Origin: a virus
UHGV virus genome: UHGV-0365212
Length of the DNA stretch: 13,094 nucleotides
Reading direction: 5' to 3' (one strand)
In this document: positions 1 through 13,094 of the stretch, one piece after another
Numbering within the stretch: the stretch's first letter is position 1
How the letters are laid out: the number at the start of each line of letters is the position of its first letter
Position numbers and translations under genes: made by a program
The notes under the pieces: generated by a model
Database searches by the model: none
The model's input: only the letters and a program-made list of their open reading frames with translations
What the model was told of the DNA's origin: nothing

Positions 1-159
1 ATTCACAGGTTCAAAGTCATGATTAAAGCGGAACATGCTGGCGATACATGTTCTGCCTTTTCGGATGTAGTGAACTTTGTTGTGGGTAGAACGCAGGATT
101 TTGCAGGGAGTGCCGTGGTGGTCGACGTACCAGGTGTTAGGGTAAATCACTCTGAACAT
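1..159 (-). CDS. hypothetical protein, 5' portion only (ORF runs off the window start); lies downstream of exo in the leftward operon
   Basis: ATG at 159-157 (minus) with AAGG about 7 nt upstream; open frame to position 1; translation MFRVIYPNTWYVDHHGTPCKILRSTHNKVHYIRKGRTCIASMFRFNHDFEPVN...; absent from ORF track because it is truncated. No family recognised. Confidence 0.3.
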   Translation of the reverse strand, partial: MFRVIYPNTWYVDHHGTPCKILRSTHNKVHYIRKGRTCIASMFRFNHDFEPVN

Positions 160-249
160 TCTTGACCTTGTGTTGTGCGGATTGATATTCAGTGCTGATA
201 TTCACCTTTATAGCGAACACCTTTACCCGGATATTATCGTGAGGATGCG

Positions 250-930
250 TCATCGCCATTGCTCCCCAAATACAAAACCAATTTCAGCCAGTGCCTCGTC
301 CATTTTTTCGATGAACTCCGGCACCATCTCGTTAAAACTCGCCATGTACTTTTCATCCCGCTCAACCACGACATAATGCAGTCCTTCACGCTTCATACGC
401 GGGTCATAGTTGGCAAAGTACCAGGCATCTTTTTGTGTCACCCACATGCTGTACTGCACCTGGGCCATGTAAGCCGATTTTATGGCCTCGAAACCACCGA
501 GCCGGAACTTCATGAAATCCCGGGAGGTAAACGGGCATTTCAGTTCAAGGCCGTTGCCGTCACTGCATAAACCATCGGGAGAGCAGGCGGTGCGCATACT
601 TTCGTCGCGATAGATGATCGGGGATTCAGTAACATTCACGCCGGAAGTGAACTCAAAGAGGGCTCTGGCGTCGTTCTCGTACTGTTTTCCCCAGGCCAGC
701 GCCTTAGCGTTAACTTCCGGAGCCACACCGGTGCAAACCTCGGCAAGCAGGGTGTGGAAGTAGGACATTTTCATGTCAGGCCACTTCTTTCCGGAGCGGG
801 GTTTTGCTATCACATTGTGAACTTCTGAAGCGGTGATGACGCCGAGCCGTAATTTGTGCCATGCATCATCCCCCTGTTCGACAGCTCTCACGTCGATCCC
901 GGTACGCTGCAGGATAATGTCCGGTGTCAT
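250..930 (-). CDS. exo: lambda exonuclease (Red-alpha, 5'-3' dsDNA exonuclease), 226 aa
   Basis: ORF-track translation [27 protein letters not shown]...GFVFGEQWR matches my recollection of phage lambda Exo almost residue for residue; start codon overlaps bet stop (ATGA), as in lambda. Confidence 0.95.
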
Positions 931-1712
931 GCTGCCACCTTCTGCTCAGTGGCTTTCTGTTTCAGGAATCCAAGAGCTTTCACTGCTTCGGCCTGTGTCA
1001 GTTCTGACGATGCGCGAATGTCGCGGCGAAATATCTGGGAACAGAGCGGCAATAAGTCGTCATCCCATGTTTTATCCAGGGCAATCAGCAGAGTGTTAAT
1101 CTCCTGCATGGTTTCATCGTTAACCGGAGTGATGTCGCGTTCCGGCTGACGTTCTGCAGTGTATGCGGTATTTTCGACAATGCGCTCGGCTTCATCCTTG
1201 TCATAGATACCAGCAAATCCGAAGGCCAGACGGGCACACTGAATCATGGCTTTATGCCGTAACATCCGTTTGGGATGCGACTGCCACGGTCCGGTGATTT
1301 CTCTGCCTTCGCGGGTTTTGAATGGTTCGCGGCGGCATTCATCCATCCACTCGGTAACGCAGATCGGATGATTGCGGTCTTTGCGGTAAATCCGGCATGT
1401 GCAGGATTCGTTGTCCTGTTCAAAGTCCATGCCGTCAAACTGCTGGTTTTCGTTGATGATGCGGGACCAGCCATCAACGCCCACCACCGGAACGATGCCG
1501 TTCTGCTTATCAGGGAAGGCGTAAATTTCTTTCGTCCACGGATTAAGACCGTACTGGTTGGCGACGATCAGCAATGCGATGAACTGCGCATCGCTGGCAT
1601 CACCTTTAAATGCCGTCTGGCGAAGAGTGGTGATCAGTTCCTGTGGGTCGACAGAATCCATGCCGACTCGTTCAGCCAGCTTCCCAGCCAGCGTTGCGAG
1701 TGCTGTACTCAT
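927..1712 (-). CDS. bet: lambda Beta single-strand annealing protein (Red-beta), 261 aa
   Basis: Translation [37 protein letters not shown]...KATEQKVAA matches recalled lambda Bet over its full length; sits between gam and exo on the same strand. Confidence 0.95.
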
Positions 1713-1717
1713 CCGTT

Positions 1718-2014
1718 TTATACCTCTGAATCAATATCAACCTGGTGGTGAGCAATGGTTTCAACCATGTACCGGATGTGTTCCGCCATGCGCTCCTGAA
1801 ACTCAACATCGTCATCAAATGCACGGGTAATGGCTTTTTTGCTGGCCCCGTGGCGTTGCAAATGATCGATGCATAGCGATTCAAACAGGTGCTGGGGCAG
1901 GCCTTTTTCCATGTCGTCTGCCAGTTCTGCCTCTTTCTCTTCACGGGCGATCTGCTGGTAGTGACGCGCCCAGCTCTGAGCCTCAAGACGATCCTGAATG
2001 TAATAAGCGTTCAT
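1718..2014 (-). CDS. gam: lambda Gam, RecBCD inhibitor; only the 98-aa short form (GamS) is encoded because the upstream long-form start is lost at a deletion junction
   Basis: Translation [44 protein letters not shown]...[10 protein letters not shown] matches recalled lambda Gam C-terminal 98 aa; AGGAG Shine-Dalgarno 7 nt upstream of the ATG; lambda-like 5' sequence persists only to about position 2090. Confidence 0.9.
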
Positions 2015-2350
2015 GGCTGAACTCCTGAAAATGGCTGTGAAAATATCGCCCGCGAAATGCCAGGCTGATTAGGAAAACAGGAAAGGGGATTAGTGATTGA
2101 GGCCGTTACCGCGTCCGTCGAGAAAAACTTCCACGAGCAAATCACGGGTATAAGTGCGCTCGATGCCGCGATGCAGATAAAGCCGTCCGCGTAAATTAGC
2201 TGATGCAGTCCAGGTACCGGATACTGAAAAATTACGCCAAAACGCTGACAGTAACAGGCGTATGAAGTCAGAGATAACGACCGGTTGATACCGTTTTATT
2301 GATTTTTGCTGGCAATTGTCATGCTGGTCTGATTTTTGTGGAGAAAGTTG

Positions 2351-2734
2351 ATGCGTGATATTCAGATGGTTCTTGAGCGTTGGGGGGCATGGGCGGCTAA
2401 TAACCATGAGGATGTGACCTGGTCGTCCATTGCTGCCGGTTTTAAGGGATTGCTTCCTTCAAAAGTAAAATCCCGTCCGCAATGCTGTGATGATGACGCG
2501 ATGATCGTTTGCGGGTGCATGGCCCGTCTGAAAAAGAACAACAGCGATTTGCACGATTTATTAGTGGATTATTATGTCGGCGGTATGACATTCATGTCAC
2601 TGGCAAGTAAGCATCGTTGCTCTGATGGTTATATCGGGAAAAAGTTACAGAAGGCTGAGGGAATAATTGAAGGGATGTTAATGGCATTAGATATCCGGTT
2701 AGAGATGGATATCGTTGTTAATAACTCTAATTAA
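2351..2734 (+). CDS. Q: late-gene antiterminator Q, short phage-21/DLP12 QuuD-like type (127 aa)
   Basis: ATG at 2351 preceded by GGAGA with 7-nt spacer (the ORF-track start at 2336 is a TTG); product [26 protein letters not shown]...[16 protein letters not shown] is Cys-rich and resembles the short Q family as I recall it; positioned just upstream of a porin/lysis module as in DLP12-type prophages. Confidence 0.7.
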
Positions 2735-2751
2735 TACGCCAATTATTTACT

Positions 2752-2785
2752 AAAAGTTATTAAAAATGGGGCGTTGAAACGCCCC
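2752..2785 (-). terminator. candidate intrinsic terminator for the porin gene (minus strand)
   Basis: GC-rich hairpin GGGGCG-ttgaaa-CGCCCC at 2768-2785; on the minus strand it is followed by a U-rich tract (AUUUUUAAUAACUUUUA); about 140 nt downstream of the porin stop. Confidence 0.45.
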
Positions 2786-2873
2786 CAAAAATAAAGGGTA
2801 ATATATAACAGAAGGTTTGTATAGTTAGAAGCAAGGTTGTGCTTCTAAAGGAAGTGGCTTGAGGGAGCCACTT

Positions 2874-2915
2874 ATATGTTGGGGAGGCAAAGCCTCCCAC
2901 AACATATCTTTTAGT
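2874..2915 (+). terminator. long imperfect hairpin followed by CUUUU; candidate terminator downstream of Q (tR'-like?)
   Basis: About 15-bp stem ATATGTTGGGGAGGC / GCCTCCC(A)CAACATAT with one bulge and AAA loop, then CTTTTAG on the plus strand. Confidence 0.4.
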
Positions 2916-2922
2916 AATCAAA

Positions 2923-4005
2923 TTAGAACTGGTAAACCATACCTACAGCAACGATATCATCGGTAGCAACGCCAGATGCTTTCGTGAAATCGCTCTTATC
3001 AATCAGGTTGATTTTGTAGTCAACAAAAGTGGACATATTTTTGTTGAAGTAATAGGTTGCACCTACATCAACATATTCAACCAGGTCCTGATCACCCCAA
3101 ACACCCAAGTCTTTTCCTTTAGAATGCAGGTAAGCAACGGATGGACGCAGGCCGAAGTCGAACTGATATTGTGCAACAGCTTCGAAGTTTTGTGCTTTGT
3201 TGGCAATATGGTTATTACCAAAAACAGTCATGTTCTGGGTTTCAGAATAGGTGGTGGCCAGATAGATGTTGTTCGCATCATATTTCAGACCAGCTGCCCA
3301 TACTTCAGCATTTTGACCAGAAGCATTCAGACCGTTGTTACCGTAGATAACCTGATTATTAGTGCGATCAGATTTAGCATAGGTTGCACCCACGCCGAAT
3401 CCTTCATACTCATAAGTAGTTGAGAAACCGAAACCATCGCCATTAGCTTCAGTTACTTCTTTTCGGTCATTTTTGCCCTGATACTGAGCTGCAAAGTTCA
3501 GGCCATCAACCAGACCAAAGAAGTCGTTGTTACGATAAGTTGCAACACCTGTGGTGCGACCAGTCATGAATACATCTGTTTGGGTCCAGGTATCGCCACC
3601 GAATTCTGGCAGAACGTCGGTCCATGCACCAATATCGTATGCTACACCGTAGTTACGGCCATAATCGATGGAGCCGTAGTCACCGAATTTCAGGCCAGCG
3701 AAGGCAAGACGGGTTTTATCTTTGGAGGAACCTTGAGATTCAGCGCGGTTGCCTTTGAATTCATATTCCCACTGACCGAAACCAGTCAGTTGATCGTTGA
3801 TTTGGGTTTCACCTTTGAAGCCAAGACGGGCATAAGTAGTATCACCATCATCTGCATCATTAGAGGAGAAGTAGTGCTTAGCATTAACTTTCCCGTACAG
3901 ATCCAGCTTGTTACTGTCTTTATTATAAATTTCAGCTGCCTGAGCAGACATCGCCATCAGTACTGATGCAGCTACAGCAGAAATTGCCACTGTTAATTTT
4001 TTCAT
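2923..4005 (-). CDS. nmpC: prophage-encoded OmpC/OmpF-family general porin (NmpC/Lc-like), 360 aa with signal peptide
   Basis: Translation starts [30 protein letters not shown] (signal peptide) and ends ...VGMVYQF (C-terminal Phe typical of porin beta-barrels); alternating Tyr/Gly-rich strands; AAGGG RBS; sits between Q and the holin on the opposite strand as nmpC/lc does in DLP12/PA-2-type prophages (from memory). Confidence 0.88.
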
Positions 4006-4434
4006 CGTGAGCCCTTTTTTTTGAACTATTATTAAAAAATGATGTCACTGCGCGATAAATATTCATCTAATCAATGTGATTATTTCAAGATGTAAGTTTT
4101 GGTTTCTCGTTTAATTTGTGAAGTAGATCTCTATTTTTATCTGAACTTTTTTCTATCGAATCCTATTCATGGCTCTTGGCTGAATAAAAATAAATCTATT
4201 AGCCAATTTATATTAATGGCTGTTATTTATAAGCGCTCTATAATTTGAAGGTTCAATTTAAATTGGCTAAAAATAACGCTGGAAATTATTTGTTGGTTAT
4301 TTGTTGAGATTTGCTTATGTATTTGTAGTGGTGTTTTCAATACTCGGTAGCATTCTCGCAAATATCATTTAGTGGTTTACGTACGTAAAAAATTGGTTAT
4401 GCTGTTAAGATTGGTTACTTCGTCACACAGCTTA

Positions 4435-4466
4435 AACCCGCCGTCGAGCGGGTTTTTCCATTTTTT
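4435..4466 (+). terminator. intrinsic terminator-like hairpin about 110 nt upstream of the holin (possible tR'-type element of the late promoter region)
   Basis: AACCCGC-cgtcga-GCGGGTT stem (4435-4454) followed by TTTTT cca TTTTTT. Confidence 0.5.
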
Positions 4467-4578
4467 GAGTCTCGATATTAGCTGATAACCCAATACCTGA
4501 GTTATTCACTGACTCCGAGTCTGTTACGTTTCGTAGTATTCCCTCAATTTACACCCGCTTTGTCTGCGAGGTGGGGTT

Positions 4579-4794
4579 ATGAAATCCATGGATAAGTTAA
4601 CAACGGGTGTCGCCTATGGCACCTCAGCAGGTAGTGCCGGGTACTGGTTTTTACAGCTGCTCGATAAAGTCACGCCCTCACAGTGGGCAGCAATAGGTGT
4701 GCTGGGTAGCCTGGTATTTGGCCTGCTGACGTACCTGACAAACCTTTATTTCAAGATTAAAGAAGATAAGCGCAAGGCTGCGAGAGGTGAATAA
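4579..4794 (+). CDS. S: class II holin, phage-21 S21-type pinholin with dual-start motif (71/68 aa)
   Basis: [26 protein letters not shown]...[13 protein letters not shown]; Met1-Lys2-Ser3-Met4 dual-start arrangement; two predicted TM segments; strong GAGGTGGGG RBS; stop overlaps endolysin start (TAATG). Confidence 0.9.
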
Positions 4795-5291
4795 TGCCTC
4801 CATCATTACGAAAAGCTGTTGCTGCTGCTATTGGTGGCGGGGCTATTGCTATAGCATCTGTGTTAATCACTGGCCCAAGTGGTAACGATGGTCTGGAAGG
4901 TGTGAGACATAATCCTTACAAAGACATAGTTGGTGTATGGACTGTATGTTACGGGCATACAGGAAAAGACATCATTCCCGGTAAAACGTATACCGAAGCA
5001 GAGTGCAAAGCCCTCCTGAATAAAGACCTTGCCACTGTCGCCAGACAAATTAACCGGTACATCAAAGTCGATATACCGGAAACAACGCGCGGCGCTCTTT
5101 ACTCGTTCGTCTACAACGTGGGTGCTGGCAATTTCAGAACATCGACGCTTCTTCGCAAAATAAACCAGGGTGATATTAAAGGCGCATGTGATCAGCTACG
5201 GCGCTGGACATACGCTGGCGGTAATCAATGGAAAGGACTGATGACTCGCCGTGAGATTGAGCGTGAAGTCTGTTTGTGGGGGAAACAATGA
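4794..5291 (+). CDS. R: SAR endolysin (T4-lysozyme-family muramidase with N-terminal signal-arrest-release segment), R21-like, 165 aa
   Basis: N-terminal weakly hydrophobic Gly/Ala-rich segment [20 protein letters not shown], then E-x8-D-x5-T catalytic spacing ([18 protein letters not shown]) as in T4 lysozyme; immediately follows the holin. Confidence 0.9.
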
Positions 5292-5746
5292 GCAGAGTAA
5301 CCGCGATTATCTCCGCTCTGGTTATCTGCATCATCGTCTGCCTGTCATTGGCTGTTAATCATTACCGTGATAACGCAATCGCCTACAAAGAGCAGCGCGA
5401 TAACAAGGCCAGTGAACTGGAGAAGGCGAACGCCACCATCGCTGACATGCGGAAGCGTCAACGTGATGTAGCAGAACTCGACGCAAGATACACAAAGGAG
5501 CTTGCTGATGCTAACGCGACTATCGAAAGTCTCCGTGCTGATGTTTCTGCTGGGCGTAAGCGCCTGCAAGTCGCCGCCACCTGTGCAAAGTCAACGACCG
5601 GAGCCAGCGGCATGGGCGATGGAGAAAGCCCAGGACTTACAGCAGATGCTGAACTCAATTATTACCGTCTCCGAAGTGGAATCGACAAGATAACCGCGCA
5701 GGTTAACTACCTGCAGGAATACATCAGGACGCAATGCCTGAAATAA
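5288..5746 (+). CDS. Rz: i-spanin Rz (inner-membrane spanin subunit), about 152 aa
   Basis: ATG at 5288 overlaps the endolysin stop (ATGA); [38 protein letters not shown]... with N-terminal TM helix and coiled-coil region; closely resembles recalled lambda Rz. The ORF-track start at 5276 is a GTG four codons upstream; I prefer the ATG. Confidence 0.88.
5508..5693 (+). CDS. Rz1: o-spanin Rz1 (outer-membrane lipoprotein) embedded in the +1 frame of Rz, 61 aa
   Basis: AAAGGAG RBS 7 nt upstream of ATG 5508; [20 protein letters not shown] with lipobox-like VSAC, then proline-rich [13 protein letters not shown]; wholly inside Rz in another frame as in lambdoid spanin pairs. Confidence 0.8.
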
Positions 5747-5778
5747 TTTTTTTGCAAATCACAAAGTCCATTTAATGA

Positions 5779-5802
5779 GCCTCGCGATGCGGGGCTTTTT
5801 TT
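5779..5802 (+). terminator. rho-independent terminator after the lysis cassette
   Basis: GCCTCGC-gat-GCGGGGC 7-bp stem (one G-U pair) followed by seven T; 33 nt downstream of Rz stop. Confidence 0.7.
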
Positions 5803-5951
5803 ACATCTGAATTTCACAGCGCATCTCACGCGCATATTACATCACCCGAGCCTTTCAGAAAGTTGAGCCTGAGAACTGCCGTATATGGTGGCGACCATCT
5901 CGGGGCGGCTTTTCTGTGAGACAGGCTCACTTTCTAAAAGGTAAAGACGCT

Positions 5952-6440
5952 ATGAACCAATTAGAAGAAAAGCTTCAAAGAATGATTTCCTTATACAAGG
6001 AAGATAACTGCCAAAAAGTTCCTGAAAACATCGCAGAGTTAATGGAATTGGCAAGTGAATTTTCTGGCATGCTTAAGTCGTCAGGTGTTCGGTCAGCGTT
6101 CTTTGTTGAAATGCTGATGCACGGCGGACTTATGGCAACAATGAGACGTGTAATGGAAGACCAGAGAAAAGAACCTCCTCAGGTATACGTTTTGTCATCG
6201 AAGAAAACTGGGCTAACCAAAATTGGGTATTCATCCAACATTCCACAACGCATCAAATCGCTTGGCAACTCTGGACCAGACTGCTTGAAGCTTGAGTGCC
6301 TGATCCCTGGTGGAAGAGAAACTGAAAACATGCTTCATCGCAAATTTGCCGCAAAGAGAAAGCACGGTGAATGGTTCGCCCTGTCCAAGGATGACATTGA
6401 GGGATTGAAATCTGTAGCGATTACTTCTGATGGCTATTAA
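5952..6440 (+). CDS. T5orf172/MUG113-domain (GIY-YIG-like fold) protein with an uncharacterised ~75-aa N-terminal region; moron between Rz and cos
   Basis: C-terminal half PQVYVLSSKKTGLTKIGYSSNIPQRIKSLGN...ETENMLHRKFAAKRKHGEWFALSKDDI fits the T5orf172 pattern (hydrophobic-YVL, KIGxT/S, R, E..LH..F, GEWF); ATG 5952 preferred over in-frame GTG 5916; AT-rich relative to flanking phage genes; has its own upstream gap after a terminator. Confidence 0.6.
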   Translation: MNQLEEKLQRMISLYKEDNCQKVPENIAELMELASEFSGMLKSSGVRSAFFVEMLMHGGLMATMRRVMEDQRKEPPQVYVLSSKKTGLTKIGYSSNIPQRIKSLGNSGPDCLKLECLIPGGRETENMLHRKFAAKRKHGEWFALSKDDIEGLKSVAITSDGY

Positions 6441-6754
6441 TGCTTGTTTAGAGCAATTTTCATAACAACTCTTCATTACAAAGCCCATCTACTGGTGGGC
6501 TTGATAATGAAACCGTGATTTACATCCCCACAATCCGGGTATGTAAAAGATAGTTCAGGCGAGAACGGATTTAACTAAATCTGTGCGCCACCAGTTAACG
6601 GCAGTACCACGAAACAACCCAAGCCAGTAAGTGGGGAAATAACACCGGCAGCCACTGAAAGATGAACCTCCTGCCTTATGGCAAAAAAGATTCTTTGTGG
6701 TGGCGGACTGATGGAAAGACATCCTAATTTCAGCCAAACATTGAAGGAGTTGTT

Positions 6755-6826
6755 ATGTCAGCAGAAGGTTTCAATAACCCATCAAAATTCCGGGATGAGT
6801 GGGATAGCAGCGTAAAGAGTAAGTGA
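6755..6826 (+). CDS. possible 23-aa small ORF with consensus Shine-Dalgarno (MSAEGFNNPSKFRDEWDSSVKSK)
   Basis: AAGGAG at 6744-6749, 5-nt spacer, ATG 6755; TGA stop at 6824-6826 overlaps a further tiny ATG; no homology recognised; could equally be a decayed gene remnant. Confidence 0.15.
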   Translation: MSAEGFNNPSKFRDEWDSSVKSK

Positions 6827-7118
6827 TGCCATCACAAAAGCCATTCCCTACAGAGTGGCTTTGATAATGGCTTATACCCTACACGGGATAACTTAACTGA
6901 TATCCCTTTTAAAGGATAAAGGTATTCAAGCCTGACACATCATGCGCTGTATCGTCGCCGTATTCCCGTATTAACAGAGACCGTAGCCCGACGGGGAACT
7001 CCTTCTGCGCGAGTGTGCGGGAATAATCAAAAACGATGCACACCGGGGTTACCGGGTACACATATTTCATCATGCCAGCGAGTCCGGTTCTGGCACGGAA
7101 GAAACCGGACGTTATGAT

Positions 7119-7529
7119 TTAGTGCGGAAATATTTGTGTAGTGTTCTGAATGTTCTCAGTAAAGAGTAATGAATTATCAAAGGTATAGTAATACCTTTTG
7201 TTTTCGTGGATATTTGTAATCCATCTGAAAACCCCTGCTGTAGCAAGATTTTTCCTGTATTCGTAAAATGATAACTCTCCTGATTTGAATCCTTTTAATG
7301 TGGCTTCTATAAGGCATTTATTTTTTGAAAATCTTACATTTACAACCTTACCCTGTCCTTTTATTAAAACCGTATTATCGTTTTCAAGAACAAGATGAAT
7401 ATTCTCTGTGGCTAAATAGTAAATGTAATGTGAGACATTGTGACGTTTTAGTTCAGAATAAAACCAGTGATAGTTTAAATTATTTCGCACTTTATCGAAT
7501 ATTTGTTTAAAAATGGCAACCTGAGCCAT
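7119..7529 (-). CDS. DUF1398-like small protein (YbcV / lambda right-arm orf family), 136 aa; AT-rich moron
   Basis: Start assigned to the second in-frame ATG (7529-7527) because GGAAGG lies 7 nt upstream; product [55 protein letters not shown]...; position between the lysis cassette and cos on the minus strand matches ybcV in DLP12 (from memory); roughly one-third G+C by eye. Confidence 0.55.
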
Positions 7530-7533
7530 TGTA

Positions 7534-7559
7534 GTACCTTCCATGTGATATGAAGGTAC
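7534..7559 (-). promoter_or_regulatory. perfect 8-bp inverted repeat (GTACCTTC / GAAGGTAC, 10-nt spacer) overlapping the RBS and first ATG of the DUF1398 gene; possible translational-control hairpin or operator
   Basis: Read directly from the sequence at 7534-7541 and 7552-7559; in the minus-strand mRNA the GGAAGG Shine-Dalgarno would pair with the upstream arm. Confidence 0.35.
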
Positions 7560-7586
7560 CTAGTCTGCACGATTATCTAAATTGCT

Positions 7587-7820
7587 TCAATCTGGTCTGA
7601 CCTGCTTTCTGAGCAATTCAGTAATGTCACTCTTTTCTTTGTTTGCTTCAGGCGAAACTCTTTTTTCTGAGCACAGTCTTCGGCGGCAGGCTTCAATGAC
7701 CCAGGCTGAGAAATTCCCGGACCCTTTTTGATCAAGAGCGATGTTAATTTGTTCAATCATTTGGTTAGGAAAGCGGATGTTGCGGGTTGTTGTTCTGCGG
7801 GTTCTGTTCTTCGTTGACAT
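7587..7820 (-). CDS. small basic protein, YlcI / lambda orf-64-like (DUF3950-type), 77 aa
   Basis: MSTKNRTRRTTTRNIRFPNQMIEQINIALDQKGSGNFSAWVIEACRRRL... resembles the small ORF found just upstream of cos in lambda and DLP12 (ylcI), recalled from memory. Confidence 0.55.
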   Translation of the reverse strand: MSTKNRTRRTTTRNIRFPNQMIEQINIALDQKGSGNFSAWVIEACRRRLCSEKRVSPEANKEKSDITELLRKQVRPD

Positions 7821-8019
7821 GAGGTTGTCCCGTATTCAGTGTCGCTGATTTGTATTGTCTGAAGTTGTTTTTACGTTAAGTTGATGCAGATCAATTAATA
7901 TGATACCTGCGTCATAATTGATTATTTGACGTGGTTTGATGGCGTAGATGCACGTTGTGACATGCAGATGATAATTATTATCATTTTGCGGGTCCTTTCC
8001 GGCGATCCGACAGGTTACG

Positions 8020-8208
8020 GGGCGGCGACCTCGCGGGTTTTCGCTATTTATGAAAATTTTCCGGTTTAAGGTGTTTCCGTTCTTCTTCGTCGTAACTTAA
8101 TGTTTTTATTTAAAATACCCCCTGAAAAGAAAGGAAACGACAGGTGCTGAAAACGGGCTTTTTGGCCTCTGTCGTTTCCTTTCTCTGTTTTTGTCCGTGG
8201 AATGAACA
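8020..8208 (+). other. cos: lambda cohesive-end site: cosN (GGGCGGCGACCT at 8020-8031) followed by the cosB region up to the Nu1 start
   Basis: Sequence ...GACAGGTTACG|GGGCGGCGACCTCGCGGGTTTTCGCTATTTATGAAAATTTTCCGGTTTAAGG... matches the lambda right-end/left-end junction as I recall it, with only scattered substitutions through to the ATG of Nu1. Confidence 0.85.
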
Positions 8209-11145
8209 ATGGAAGTCAACAAAAAGCAGCTGGCTGACATTTTCGGTGCGAGTATCCGTACCATTCAGAACTGGCAGGAGGCTCAGATTGCGTCCATCAG
8301 CCAGAGTGTGGCGCGTTTCTCCTCTGCATCCGGCGTGGAGGTGGACAAGGTCGCTGAAGCCTTCGGGAAGCTGACCACAGAGGGGAATACCAATATCTCC
8401 GGTGTCACGGTGGTGTTCCGGGCCGGTGAGCAGGAGCAGACACCGCCGGAGGGATTTGAATCCTCTGGCTCCGAGACGGTGCTGGGTACGGAAGTGAAAT
8501 ACGACACGCCGATCACCCGGACCATCACGTCGGCAAACATTGACCGTCTGCGTTTTACTTTCGGCGTGCAGGCACTGGTGGAAACCACCTCAAAGGGGGA
8601 CAGGAATCCATCGGAAGTCCGCCTGCTGGTTCAGATACAACGTAACGGTGGCTGGGTGACGGAAAAAGACATCACCATTAAGGGCAAAACCACCTCACAG
8701 TATCTGGCCTCGGTTGTGGTGGATAACCTGCCGCCGCGCCCGTTTAATATCCGGATGCGCAGGATGACGCCGGACAGCACCACAGACCAGCTGCAGAACA
8801 AAACGCTCTGGTCGTCATACACCGAAATTATCGATGTGAAACAGTGCTACCCGAACACGGCACTGGTCGGCGTGCAGGTGGACTCGGAGCAGTTCGGCAG
8901 CCAGCAGGTGAGCCGTAATTATCATCTGCGCGGGCGTATTCTGCAGGTGCCGTCGAATTATAACCCGCAGACGCGGCAATACAGCGGTATCTGGGACGGA
9001 ACGTTTAAACCGGCATACAGCAACAACATGGCCTGGTGTCTGTGGGATATGCTGACCCATCCGCGCTACGGCATGGGGAAACGTCTTGGTGCAGCGGATG
9101 TGGATAAATGGGCGCTGTATGTCATCGGCCAGTACTGCGACCAGTCAGTGCCGGACGGCTTTGGCGGCACGGAACCGCGTATCACCTGTAATGCGTACCT
9201 GACCACACAGCGCAAGGCGTGGGATGTGCTCAGTGATTTCTGCTCGGCGATGCGCTGTATGCCGGTATGGAACGGGCAGACGCTGACGTTCGTGCAGGAC
9301 CGGCCGTCGGATAAGGTGTGGACCTATAACCGCAGTAATGTGGTGATGCCGGATGATGGCGCGCCGTTCCGCTACAGTTTCAGCGCCCTGAAGGACCGCC
9401 ATAATGCCGTTGAGGTGAACTGGATTGACCCGAACAACGGCTGGGAGACGGCGACAGAGCTTGTTGAAGATACGCAGGCCATTGCCCGTTACGGTCGTAA
9501 TGTCACGAAGATGGATGCCTTTGGTTGTACCAGTCGGGGGCAGGCACACCGCGCCGGGCTGTGGCTGATTAAAACGGAACTGCTGGAAACGCAGACCGTG
9601 GACTTCAGCGTGGGTGCTGAAGGGCTTCGCCATGTACCGGGCGATGTCATTGAAATTTGCGATGATGACTATGCCGGTATCAGCATCGGCGGGCGCGTGC
9701 TGGCGGTGAACAGCCAGACCCGGACGCTGACGCTCGACCGTGAAATCACGCTGCCATCTTCCGGCACCACGCTGATAAGCCTGGTTGACGGGCAGGGGAG
9801 TCCGGTCAGCGTGGAGGTCCAGTCCGTCACCGACGGCGTGAAGGTGAAAGTGAGCCGTGTTCCTGACGGCGTTGCAGAATACAGCGTGTGGGGGCTGAAG
9901 CTGCCGACGCTGCGCCAGCGCCTGTTCCGCTGCGTGAGTATCCGTGAGAACGATGACGGCACGTATGCCATCACCGCCGTGCAGCACCTGACTGCCGAAG
10001 TCACCGCAGACAGCGGGGAGTATCAGGTACTGGCCCGCTGGGACACGCCGAAGGTGGTGAAGGGCGTGAGCTTTATGCTTCGCCTGACCGTGGCCGCGGA
10101 TGAAGGCATTGAGCGGCTGGTCAGCACGGCCCGGACGGCGGAAACCACATACCGCTTCACGCAACTGGCGCTGGGGAACTACAGGCTGACAGTCCGGGCA
10201 GTAAATGCCCGGGGACAGCAGGGAGACCCGGCGTCGGTATCGTTCCGGATTGCCGCCCCGGCAGCGCCGTCGCGGATTGAGCTGACACCGGGCTATTTTC
10301 AGATAACCGCCACGCCGCATCTTGCGGTTTATGATCCGACGGTACAGTTTGAGTTCTGGTTCTCGGAAAAGCGGATTGCGGATATCAGGCAGGTTGAAAC
10401 CACAGCCCGCTATCTTGGTACGGCGCTGTACTGGATAGCCGCCAGTATCAATATCAAACCGGGCCATGATTATTACTTTTATATCCGCAGTGTGAACACC
10501 GTTGGCAAATCGGCATTCGTGGAGGCCGTCGGTCGGGCGAGCGATGATGCGGAAGGTTACCTGGATTTTTTCAAAGGCAAGATATTTTCCCTGACATCAG
10601 ACGGAAAGCTGACCGCTAAAAATGCGGATATCAGTGGCAGTGTGAATGCGAACTCAGGGACGCTCAACAATGTCACGATTAATGAGAACTGTCAGATTAA
10701 GGGGAAACTGTCAGCCAACCAGATTGAAGGTGATATTGTCAAAACGGTCAGCAAGTCTTTCCCCCGCACGAACAGTTATGCCAGTGGCACCATCACGGTA
10801 AGAATCAGTGATGATCAGAAATTTGACCGGCAGGTCATGATACCGCCAGTGTTATTCCGCGGTGGTAAGCATGAGAATTTCAACAGTAATAACCAACAGT
10901 CATACTGGTATTCAACCTGCCGGTTAAGAGTGACCCGCAATGGTCAGGAGATTTTTAATCAGTCCACGACGGATGCTCAGGGCGTATTTTCCTCCGTTAT
11001 AGATATGCCTGCCGGACAGGGGACGCTGACACTGACATTCACCGTATCTTCATCAGGAGCGAATAACTGGACACCAACAACCAGTATCAGCGATCTGCTG
11101 GTTGTGGTGATGAAAAAATCCACAGCAGGTATCAGTATCAGCTGA
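8209..11145 (+). CDS. J: in-frame fusion ORF (978 aa): Nu1 residues 1-24, then a ~33-aa segment resembling tape-measure protein H, then tail-tip/host-specificity protein J from about residue 56 to the end; deletion remnant rather than an intact structural gene
   Basis: N-terminus [24 protein letters not shown] equals recalled lambda Nu1; [33 protein letters not shown] matches a motif I recall from lambda gpH; from [26 protein letters not shown] onward the protein tracks lambda J for about 800 residues, with a divergent C-terminal ~230 aa; junctions at about nt 8280 and 8379. Confidence 0.8.
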
Positions 11146-11163
11146 ATTTTATAACCCAGAACG

Positions 11164-11187
11164 GGCGTCAGAAATGACGCCTTTTTT
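11164..11187 (+). terminator. rho-independent terminator between the J remnant and lom
   Basis: GGCGTCA-gaaa-TGACGCC perfect 7-bp stem followed by TTTTTT. Confidence 0.7.
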
Positions 11188-11211
11188 ATTGCAGAAAAGC
11201 GAGAGGTAATT

Positions 11212-11811
11212 ATGCGTAAACTTTATGCCGCCATTTTGTCCGCAGCCATTTGTCTGGCCGTATCCGGTGCGCCTGCATGGGCGTCTGAACATCAGTCCAC
11301 GCTGAGCGCGGGGTATCTTCATGCCCGGACGAACGTTCCCGGCAGTGATGATCTGAACGGGATTAACGTGAAATACCGTTATGAGTTTACGGACACACTG
11401 GGGATGGTGACGTCGTTCAGCTATGCAGGAGACAAGAATCGCCAGCTGACCCGTTACAGCGATACCCGCTGGTATGAAGATTCCGTGCGTAACCGCTGGT
11501 TCAGCGTGATGGCGGGGCCGTCTGTACGCGTGAATGAATGGTTCAGCGCGTATGCGATGGCGGGTGTGGCTTACAGCCGTGTGTCGACTTTTTCCGGGGA
11601 TTATATCCGCGTAACTGACAATAAGGGGAAAACGCACGATGTGCTGACCGGAAGTGATGACGGTCGCCACAGCAACACGTCTCTGGTGTGGGGGGCTGGC
11701 GTGCAGTTTAACCCGACCGAATCCGTGGCCATTGATGTCGCTTATGAAGGCTCCGGCAGTGGTGACTGGCGCACTGACGGGTTCATCGTGGGTGTTGGTT
11801 ATAAATTCTGA
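11212..11811 (+). CDS. lom: Lom, Ail/Lom-family outer-membrane beta-barrel protein (lysogenic conversion), 199 aa
   Basis: Signal peptide MRKLYAAILSAAICLAVSGAPAWA; C-terminal block SVAIDVAYEGSGSGDWRTDGFIVGVGYKF is identical to recalled lambda Lom C-terminus; GAGAGG RBS; located right after J as in lambda. Confidence 0.9.
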   Translation: MRKLYAAILSAAICLAVSGAPAWASEHQSTLSAGYLHARTNVPGSDDLNGINVKYRYEFTDTLGMVTSFSYAGDKNRQLTRYSDTRWYEDSVRNRWFSVMAGPSVRVNEWFSAYAMAGVAYSRVSTFSGDYIRVTDNKGKTHDVLTGSDDGRHSNTSLVWGAGVQFNPTESVAIDVAYEGSGSGDWRTDGFIVGVGYKF

Positions 11812-11837
11812 TTAGCCAGGTAACACAGTGTTATGAC

Positions 11838-11864
11838 AGCCCGCCGGTTCAGGCGGGCTTTTTT
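11838..11864 (+). terminator. rho-independent terminator after lom
   Basis: AGCCCGCC-ggttca-GGCGGGCT 8-bp stem followed by TTTTTT. Confidence 0.75.
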
Positions 11865-11875
11865 GTGGGGTGAAT

Positions 11876-13094
11876 ATGGCAGTAAAGATTTCAGGTGTAC
11901 TGAAAGACGGCACAGGAAAACCGGTACAGAACTGCACAATCCAGCTGAAAGCAAAACGTAACAGTACCACGGTGGTGGTAAACACGCTGGCCTCAGAAAA
12001 TCCGGATGAAGCCGGGCGTTACAGCATGGACGTTGAGTACGGTCAGTACAGCGTTATTCTGTTGGTGGAAGGATTCCCGCCGTCACATGCCGGGACCATC
12101 ACCGTGTATGAAGATTCTCAACCCGGTACGCTGAATGATTTTCTCGGTGCCATGACGGAGGATGATGCCCGTCCGGAGGCTCTGCGCCGTTTTGAACTGA
12201 TGGTGGAAGAGGTGGTGCGTAACGCGTCCGCGGTGGCACAGAACACGGCAGCCGCGAAGAAGCCAGCCGGCGATGCCGGCACATCTGCCCGTGAGGCGGC
12301 AACCCATGCGACTGATGCTGCAGGCTCAGCACGCGCAGCCAGCACGTCAGCAGGACAGGCCGCGTCGTCGGCTCAGTCAGCGTCTTCCAGCGCAGGAACG
12401 GCATCAACAAAGGCCACTGAAGCGGAAAAAAGTGCTGCCGCTGCAGAGTCCTCAAAAAGCGCGGCGGCCACCAGTGCCGGTGCGGCGAAAAAGTCAGAAA
12501 CGAATGCGGCAGCGTCACAACAATCAGCAGCCACTTCTGCATCCACCGCGACCACGAAAGCGTCAGAAGCTGCCACCTCAGCCCGGGATGCGGCGGCCTC
12601 AAAAGAGGCAGCGAAATCATCAGAAACGAACGCATCCTCGAGCGCCAGTAGCGCAGCTTCCTCGGCAACGGCGGCAGGAAATTCCGCGAAGGCGGCAAAA
12701 ACGTCCGAGACGAACGCCAGGTCTTCTGAGACGGCAGCGGGACAGAGCGCCTCAGCTGCGGCAGGCTCAAAAACAGCGGCTGCGTCGTCTGCCAGTGCCG
12801 CGTCAACAAGTGCCGGGCAGGCCTCAGCCAGTGCCACCGCCGCCGGAAAATCGGCAGAAAGTGCCGCATCGTCTGCTTCAACAGCCACAACGAAGGCTGG
12901 CGAAGCCACTGAACAGGCCAGCGCAGCAGCGAGGTCAGCTTCCGCAGCGAAGACATCCGAAACGAACGCGAAAGCGTCGGAAACCAGCGCAGAATCCTCA
13001 AAAACGGCTGCCGCATCGTCCGCCAGTTCGGCGGCGTCATCGGCCTCATCGGCGTCTGCTTCAAAAGATGAGGCGACCAGACAGGCATCAGCAG
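11876..13094 (+). CDS. stf: side tail fibre protein Stf, 5' portion (continues past the window end); contains a long Ala/Ser/Thr-rich low-complexity repeat region
   Basis: ATG 11876; MAVKISGVLKDGTGKPVQNCTIQLKAKRNSTTVVVNTLASENPDEAGRYSMDVEYGQYSVILLVEGFPPSHAGTITVYEDSQPGTLNDF... matches recalled lambda Stf N-terminus; open to position 13094 with no stop; missing from the ORF track because it is truncated. Confidence 0.85.
   Translation, partial: MAVKISGVLKDGTGKPVQNCTIQLKAKRNSTTVVVNTLASENPDEAGRYSMDVEYGQYSVILLVEGFPPSHAGTITVYEDSQPGTLNDFLGAMTEDDARPEALRRFELMVEEVVRNASAVAQNTAAAKKPAGDAGTSAREAATHATDAAGSARAASTSAGQAASSAQSASSSAGTASTKATEAEKSAAAAESSKSAAATSAGAAKKSETNAAASQQSAATSASTATTKASEAATSARDAAASKEAAKSSETNASSSASSAASSATAAGNSAKAAKTSETNARSSETAAGQSASAAAGSKTAAASSASAASTSAGQASASATAAGKSAESAASSASTATTKAGEATEQASAAARSASAAKTSETNAKASETSAESSKTAAASSASSAASSASSASASKDEATRQASA

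Follow-up and report, generated by a model that had tools for sequence, protein, structure and literature searches.

The locus examined here raises the question of why a cos closely resembling that of phage lambda persists in viral DNA from which the terminase genes have gone, and of what becomes of such a site when a phage with a matching terminase grows in the same cell. The preliminary description of the window (the whole stretch analyzed, 13,094 nt of UHGV virus genome UHGV-0365212) took the cos to be functional and cosmid-like, open to cutting and packaging in trans by a lambda-type phage with transduction of flanking host DNA or morons, and offered as an alternative that cos had not had time to decay since the deletion. 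Our analysis suggests that the site is probably a complete cos of lambda specificity, surviving passively as a relic in a defective prophage of the DLP12 family, which a helper phage would cut with dead-end packaging or recombination as the outcome.

The 12-nt cohesive-end sequence GGGCGGCGACCT has a single exact match in the 13-kb window, at 8020-8031 on the plus strand. Because this match is embedded in a 622-bp lambda-like stretch (7658-8279), which aligns gap-free to lambda from 48146 to bp 260 across the joined cohesive ends with 96% identity, it reflects homology and not a chance 12-mer. Lambda bp 1 was set at window position 8020 and the subsites were placed from there (Table 1); the cos alignment comprised eight sequences, including lambda record PV340536.1. 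Between 7980 and 8208, the window and lambda differ by eight substitutions over 229 positions (7984, 7988, 8003, 8072, 8092, 8121, 8153 and 8156) and by no indel, so that the "essentially lambda-identical" cohesive end and cosB of the preliminary description correspond to 221 matches, or 96.5% identity. None of these changes touches cosQ, cosN, the R3 core, R2 or R1, and identity with lambda is unbroken from 8004 to 8071.

Comparison with the lambda cos across cosQ, R1-R3 and I1, which had been proposed as a check, recovers all subsites at lambda spacing. We take the lambda coordinates of cosQ to be 48473-48479. This subsite is required for packaging termination (PMC4669245), while cosN is by definition a 16-bp nicking site (PMC9026076). 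R3 is the critical TerS binding site, with a core at bp 55-63 and genetically critical positions at bp 56, 58 and 59 (Murialdo and Feiss 2022, PMC9026076; Feiss et al. 2015, PMC4669245), and its distance from cosN tolerates one or two bp of change only (PMC4669245). In the window, the contact core TTTCCGTTC is lambda-identical and the cosN-R3 spacing is unchanged, the substitution at 8072 (lambda bp 53, C to T) falling within the 16-bp R3 and outside the core. The position of an IHF-consensus-like 13-mer between R3 and R2 suggests that it is the mapped I1 site. By every feature that can be checked in sequence, the interval 7990-8184 thus appears to be a complete cos of lambda specificity.

A minor point concerns numbering. 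The classical lambda reference presumably has one more G between R2 and R1, with the Nu1 ATG at bp 191. This ATG lies at bp 190 in PV340536.1 and in all seven other aligned sequences, the region concerned being alignment columns 225-235 (window ~8150-8165), and ten matches from Stx1a-converting phages span 225 bases against the 224-base query. To the right of about bp 138, our numbers may trail the classical ones by one; cosQ, cosN and R3 are unaffected. An Rfam scan of the window matched no RNA family and thus gave no hint of an RNA element within the interval.

Table 1. Features of the cos region and its surroundings, in window coordinates.
Feature	Position	Strand	Remarks
ylcI/ynfO-type DUF3950 gene	7587-7820	-	Pfam PF13132, E 5e-21; conserved left neighbour of cos in lambda, DLP12 and Qin
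cosQ heptamer GGGTCCT	7990-7996	+	Same in 8/8 aligned sequences; no cosQ-cosN indel relative to lambda
cosN 16-mer CGGGGCGGCGACCTCG	8018-8033	+	12-nt GGGCGGCGACCT (8020-8031) with 2 bp on each side; lambda-identical; partly symmetric
cosB R3 AGGTGTTTCCGTTCTT	8069-8084	+	Lambda bp 50-65; single change, bp 53 C>T
IHF-consensus-like 13-mer, candidate I1	8098-8110	-	Lambda bp 79-91; one mismatch to WATCAANNNNTTR; lambda-identical; between R3 and R2
cosB R2 AGAAAGGAAACGACAG	8128-8143	-	Inverted R element; reverse complement equals R1; lambda-identical
cosB R1 CTGTCGTTTCCTTTCT	8169-8184	+	Lambda-identical; perfect 16-bp inverted pair with R2
Nu1 ATG	8209	+	
Nu1 (TerS) remnant, codons 1-24	8209-8280	+	tblastn 24/24 identical to lambda Nu1; Pfam Phage_Nu1 covers residues 1-29 only
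Gene H (tape-measure) internal fragment, 104 bp	8278-8381	+	Lambda 11135-11238, 100% identical
J remnant	8370-11145	+	Lambda J aa 53-822 and 947-1131; extra 372-bp internal deletion at 10584/10585
lom (Ail/Lom outer-membrane protein)	11212-11811	+	Pfam PF06316, E 1e-118, full length; first intact gene rightward of cos

Each variant base of 7980-8208 is also present in phage 2H10, which is identical to the window at 228 of the 229 positions; at the sole difference, 8169 (the first base of R1), it is the window that has the lambda base. The T at bp 53 is common to phages 2H10 and PhiR29_1 and to the DLP12 prophage of K-12, while PhiR42_1 and K-12 Qin vary at bp 54 rather than bp 53. The Nu1 N-terminal regions of 2H10, PhiR29_1 and PhiR42_1 are the same as that of lambda, apart from one K-to-R change in PhiR42_1, and since the phages with bp 53 or bp 54 variants of R3 thereby encode lambda-type Nu1 N-terminal regions, lambda-type TerS would work with these variants. 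The records of 2H10 and of the PhiR phages were deposited as phage genomes and name a propagation host, which suggests that these phages are viable. We therefore consider it quite improbable that natural substitutions or the chromosomal context block productive terminase binding and that the cos is no longer functional. The changes open to such suspicion are R3 bp 53, lambda 48486 between cosQ and cosN, and bp 73 and 102 between R3 and R2, and for the first of them the suspicion has some ground, the C at bp 53 being conserved in lambda's own R1, R2 and R3. Nevertheless, all of these variant bases occur in 2H10 next to a lambda-identical Nu1 N-terminal region, bp 56, 58 and 59 and the cosN-R3 spacing are as in lambda, and the cos region of K-12 DLP12, also with T at bp 53, recombines into viable lambda (PMC3945230). 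The cos looks functional, with lambda packaging specificity, as had been supposed, and at the level of sequence we find no counter-argument.

The terminase genes themselves are gone, in the manner that the preliminary description had indicated: Nu1 is lambda-identical over codons 1-24 and then gives way to gene H, and gene A is absent from the 13-kb window, where tblastn with the lambda A, W, B and E proteins returned no match. What is left of Nu1 includes the recognition helix, the wing and everything downstream being lost. The Nu1/H junction shows a 2-bp microhomology, while the H/J junction lies at an imperfect 12-bp repeat and J is entered at codon 53. The extra 372 bp missing from J are present in the closest phage J genes among the matches listed (PhiR29_2, 2H10 and others). 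These features are consistent with a loss of the head and tail genes by illegitimate deletions, which would have removed lambda bp 261 to 11134 and 11239 to 15659, plus the 372 bp in J. All three deletion junctions are in frame, and a Nu1'-H'-J' ORF of 978 aa results (8209-11145, plus strand), stop-free over 2.9 kb where 0 of 2000 shuffles stay open. This ORF calls for caution in annotation, being a non-functional deletion chimera and not a tail gene. Annotation pipelines label parts of it "TipJ family tail tip protein", and lom lies just downstream.

According to Pfam and the lambda map, the window reads, in order, exo, bet and gam; a junction in kil; Q; a porin gene; holin, lysozyme and Rz genes; a GIY-YIG gene; ybcV (a DUF1398 gene); ylcI; cos; the chimera; lom; and stf, which runs past the window end. 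Pfam families are matched over their full length by exo, bet, gam, Q, porin, holin, lysozyme, Rz and lom alike, and the position of the DUF3950 gene matches ylcI in DLP12 and ynfO in Qin. Lambda-like exo-bet-gam homology runs to 2099, inside kil, and from 2215 onward, upstream of Q, the sequence is again DLP12-like; no replication genes, O/P included, were revealed in the window by the Pfam scan or by the lambda and DLP12 homology maps. The layout is that of defective DLP12/Qin-type prophages, with Q, lysis genes, ybcV and ylcI, then cos, a terminase remnant and a tail-fibre remnant, the head genes being deleted. The BE2-5 copy of the element occupies the DLP12 locus, at argU beside intD and with appY-ompT after it, and F138 also has the argU-intD arrangement; the window itself stops short of the attachment site. 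Since relatives with an identical junction lie at argU-intD, we assign the window to the DLP12 family of defective prophages.

Several details of this element may be recorded. The 2099-2215 junction removes the whole immunity and replication region, and its ~115 bp match neither lambda nor K-12 DLP12. The nmpC-type porin gene (2923-4005, minus strand) is uninterrupted, encodes 360 aa with a full-length Porin_1 match, and sits between Q and the holin gene in the opposite orientation to the late genes; in K-12 DLP12, nmpC is split by IS5. Between Rz and ybcV, a 174-aa ORF (5916-6440, plus strand) with GIY-YIG-related T5orf172/MUG113 domains occupies the place that bor has in lambda and K-12 DLP12, and it is kept in the further-deleted relatives inspected (BE2-5 and F138).

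The two K-12 prophages of this type offer the closest comparison. DLP12 (ylcI - cos - nohD - aaaD pseudogene - tfaD, at argU) occupies the same locus as the relatives with the identical junction, shares the left neighbours ybcV and ylcI and, like the window, has no functional large terminase; over 229 bp the two cos regions differ by 6 substitutions, none of which alters a subsite, and both have T at bp 53. The Nu1 homologue of DLP12, nohD, is of full length, and 308 bp of A remain (aaaD), whereas Nu1 ends at codon 24 in the window; another difference is the right-hand deletion endpoint, which lies in tfa in DLP12 and in H and J here. Conversely, exo-bet-gam, an uninterrupted porin gene and lom are still present in the window. 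Qin (ydfO - ynfO - cos - nohA - stfQ) likewise combines DUF1398 and DUF3950 genes, an intact cos, and a Nu1 running into tail-fibre genes without A, but it lies at another chromosomal site, keeps more of Nu1, and has stf as the fusion partner instead of H and J.

A 611-nt segment comprising cos and the junction is found, identical, in ten complete E. coli records. In a whole-window search, no complete E. coli genome covered at least 80% of the window, so the exact arrangement is absent from that collection and the relatives are further-deleted versions of it; the exact 40-nt Nu1/H junction had 0 matches among GTDB species representatives. BE2-5 equals the window minus 145-5520 and 8866-12152, without a single substitution in the remaining 4.4 kb (100% identity), and the distance from intD to cos among junction-bearing genomes is about 1.5, 3.0, 4.1 or 6.9 kb. 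The identity of BE2-5 despite two more deletions, together with these varying distances, indicates that deletions and IS events outrun point substitutions in this lineage. With the retained genes that were checked still open, the BE2-5 pattern points to recency as the reason for the intact cos, and of the two readings in the preliminary description we favour the alternative one, a deletion so recent that cos is still undecayed. An undecayed cos of 200 bp would be expected without any selection, and recency is the better-supported explanation, though it would also be compatible with selection. The cos would thus be intact through a lineage that loses DNA by deletion much faster than point substitutions build up, and would not be maintained for the host; the locus is a clean example of prophage decay, in which nested deletion outruns point mutation.

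Orphan sites of this kind are abundant. Of 5426 complete E. coli genomes, 4591 contain the segment made of cos and the 5' end of Nu1, which is present at 8830 places in all. The lambda-type A gene is present at 5371, so that some 3,000 cos copies or more are without a lambda-type large terminase gene. At least 80% of A is found in 3260 of the 5426 genomes, and about 60% of genomes therefore hold a potential resident helper. K-12 itself has two such sites, DLP12 and Qin being both terminase-less (no functional A) with cosQ, cosN, R3 core, R2 and R1 as in lambda. Feiss et al. picked E. coli C as indicator for having no cosN-lambda in defective prophages, unlike K-12 (PMC4669245), a choice which indicates that the field is aware of orphan cos sites; the study of "grounded prophages" (PMC6379469) contains nothing on cos. 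An orphan, terminase-less cos is an ordinary and already known feature of E. coli cryptic prophages, and holds little new biology. In some E. coli genomes, similarity to the cos query is confined to its first 76-111 bases, covering cosQ and cosN and ending at about bp 40-75, which fits cos sites sharing cosQ and cosN with a different cosB specificity. A cos with a different cosB specificity has reportedly been described in phage 21.

This abundance, and the unchanged cosQ, cosN and R sites of DLP12, Qin and the window, could also be read as the mark of selection, the orphan cos being kept as a decoy that wastes the terminase and proheads of lambda-specificity invaders, or as a recombination landing pad helping the host or the phage. 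Packaging from a prophage cos does lower the output of viable progeny (Feiss et al., PMC4669245), and the independent deletions in the window, Qin and DLP12 all begin just right of cos. However, our relatives were found with the cos junction as query, which biases the sample to genomes that kept cos and confounds the pattern of deletion endpoints. Active phages are equally conserved at cos, moreover, and recombination with them can refresh the site (PMC3945230), while the rest of the remnant, where checked, is equally undecayed. As a terminase sink, one to few chromosomal copies would be negligible. Replicating phage genomes far outnumber such copies. We regard maintenance by selection as very unlikely, and give still less credence to the broader proposal that orphan lambda-type cos sites are maintained as non-neutral elements, whether phage decoys or sites from which cos would initiate transfer of the region near argU (lom, appY, ompT, nfrAB, cus), which seems extremely unlikely.

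When a phage of lambda specificity grows in the cell, TerS would bind R3, R2 and R1 with IHF, and TerL would nick cosN. The resulting double-strand end at cos would stimulate recombination with the phage on the left side, which would give ylcI, ybcV, the GIY-YIG nuclease gene and the lysis region a route of exchange to phages. Such events have a precedent in K-12: the DLP12 cos is part of a 3.35-kb homology with lambda, and cos was the immediate neighbour of 10 of the 19 lambda-DLP12 recombination junctions sequenced (De Paepe et al. 2014, PMC3945230), a position attributed to terminase breaks stimulating left-side recombination (PMC3945230). Resident cos sites can in this way seed recombination between infecting lambdoid phages and cryptic prophages.

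On the other side of the cut, packaging would run rightward through J'-lom-stf and then into host DNA, until a headful stall leaves tailless, non-infectious heads, with transduction at most very rare. Lambda packaging is polar, proceeding left to right from the Nu1 side (PMC10287942), so the DNA entering the head would be J'-lom-stf-tfa, then appY, ompT, envY and nfrAB (order from BE2-5), and the porin, lysis and nuclease genes, lying left of cos, would not be packageable from it. Cos terminases need a second cos to finish packaging (PMC6687093), and according to Feiss et al. (2015, PMC4669245), packaging that starts from a lone prophage cos fills the head with neighbouring host DNA and then stalls, so that the particle stays tailless and non-infectious. 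No second cos is found in the window, and the BE2-5 chromosome holds only one of lambda type; the stall would follow from the lack of a second cos.

The picture of a chromosomal cosmid, in which a lambda-type phage cuts the cos and packages flanking DNA into infectious particles with appreciable transduction of host genes or morons, therefore seems improbable to us. It has an intact cos of lambda specificity in its favour, as well as the commonness of helpers, given the 3260 of 5426 E. coli genomes with a near-full-length lambda-type A. For passive chromosomal prophages with a cos at either end, packaging gives 0.1-0.67 virions per cell (PMC4669245), Sp4 of O157 Sakai is packaged in trans with a disrupted nu1 (PMC2669165), and a 42.7-kb circular record, pF138-4, carries the same cos with about 40 kb of chromosomal genes. 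Yet completion requires the second cos (PMC6687093) that both the window and the BE2-5 chromosome lack, there is no replication module to make concatemers, and Sp4 undergoes excision and amplification, unlike the present element. The porin and lysis genes are upstream of cos and outside the reach of packaging. K-12 DLP12, at about 21 kb, is below the minimum for a lambda head. We found in the window neither an amplification module nor paired cos sites in direct order a capsid length apart, such as a mobilisable cos element would have. The "cosmid-like" label and the transduction of flanking DNA or morons suggested with it are not supported as worded, in view of the single cos, the absence of replication genes, the tailless particles that a lone cos yields (PMC4669245) and the restriction of entry to right-side DNA. 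Nor is the idea new, since trans packaging and the interplay of the DLP12 cos with lambda have been published (PMC2669165, PMC3945230).

Three known systems offer further comparisons. Sp4 of E. coli O157:H7 Sakai is, like the window, a lambdoid element with an intact cos and no working terminase (Asadulghani et al. 2009, PMC2669165), and the terminase of a co-resident prophage has been proposed to act on the shared cos (PMC2669165). It is, however, near full size, excises, circularises and is amplified, whereas in the present element the genes for replication, the head and most of the tail are gone, and no second cos is available. The strain MF532 of Feiss (gal-attL-imm434-cos-delta[Nu1...attR]) also keeps cos with Nu1 onward deleted, and works as a helper-packaging cos (PMC4669245). 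Strains of this type differ in being engineered or selected, with a second cos supplied in tandem. Sternberg and Weisberg reportedly described in-situ packaging from a prophage cos in 1975. The cos-type E. coli PICIs share with the window a chromosomal location, a cos and the lack of a terminase, and depend on lambda-like helpers for packaging (PMC9026076), but they excise, replicate, are capsid-sized and use the Rpp protein. Their cosB equivalent is proposed to be completely different in sequence from that of the helper (PMC9026076), while the cosB of the window is of lambda's own type. The PICI hallmarks (integrase, regulator, replication, Rpp) were not seen among the window ORFs, where the Pfam scan returned lambdoid genes only.

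One of the ten junction-bearing records is not a chromosome. pF138-4 (NZ_OY754386.1) is a 42,747-bp circular "plasmid" without plasmid genes, which carries the GIY-YIG gene, ybcV, ylcI, the same cos, Nu1'-H'-J', tfa, appY, ompT, nfrAB, RHS/VgrG, cusSRCFBA and ybdK, closed by one IS150; the corresponding part of the window is ~5900-8865. A size of 42.7 kb falls within lambda's packageable range, to which we attach no further meaning. Were orphan cos sites maintained after all, this IS150-closed circle of packageable size, with the same cos, would be a natural substrate; as a monomeric circle with one cos and no origin, it is not a good one for packaging. At the corresponding place, the F138 chromosome record (14261-19899 of the examined locus) reads lysis'-IS150-hokE. 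The two layouts are thus reciprocal products of recombination between two direct IS150 copies or, equally, an assembly ambiguity, since both configurations share the same IS-flank junctions.
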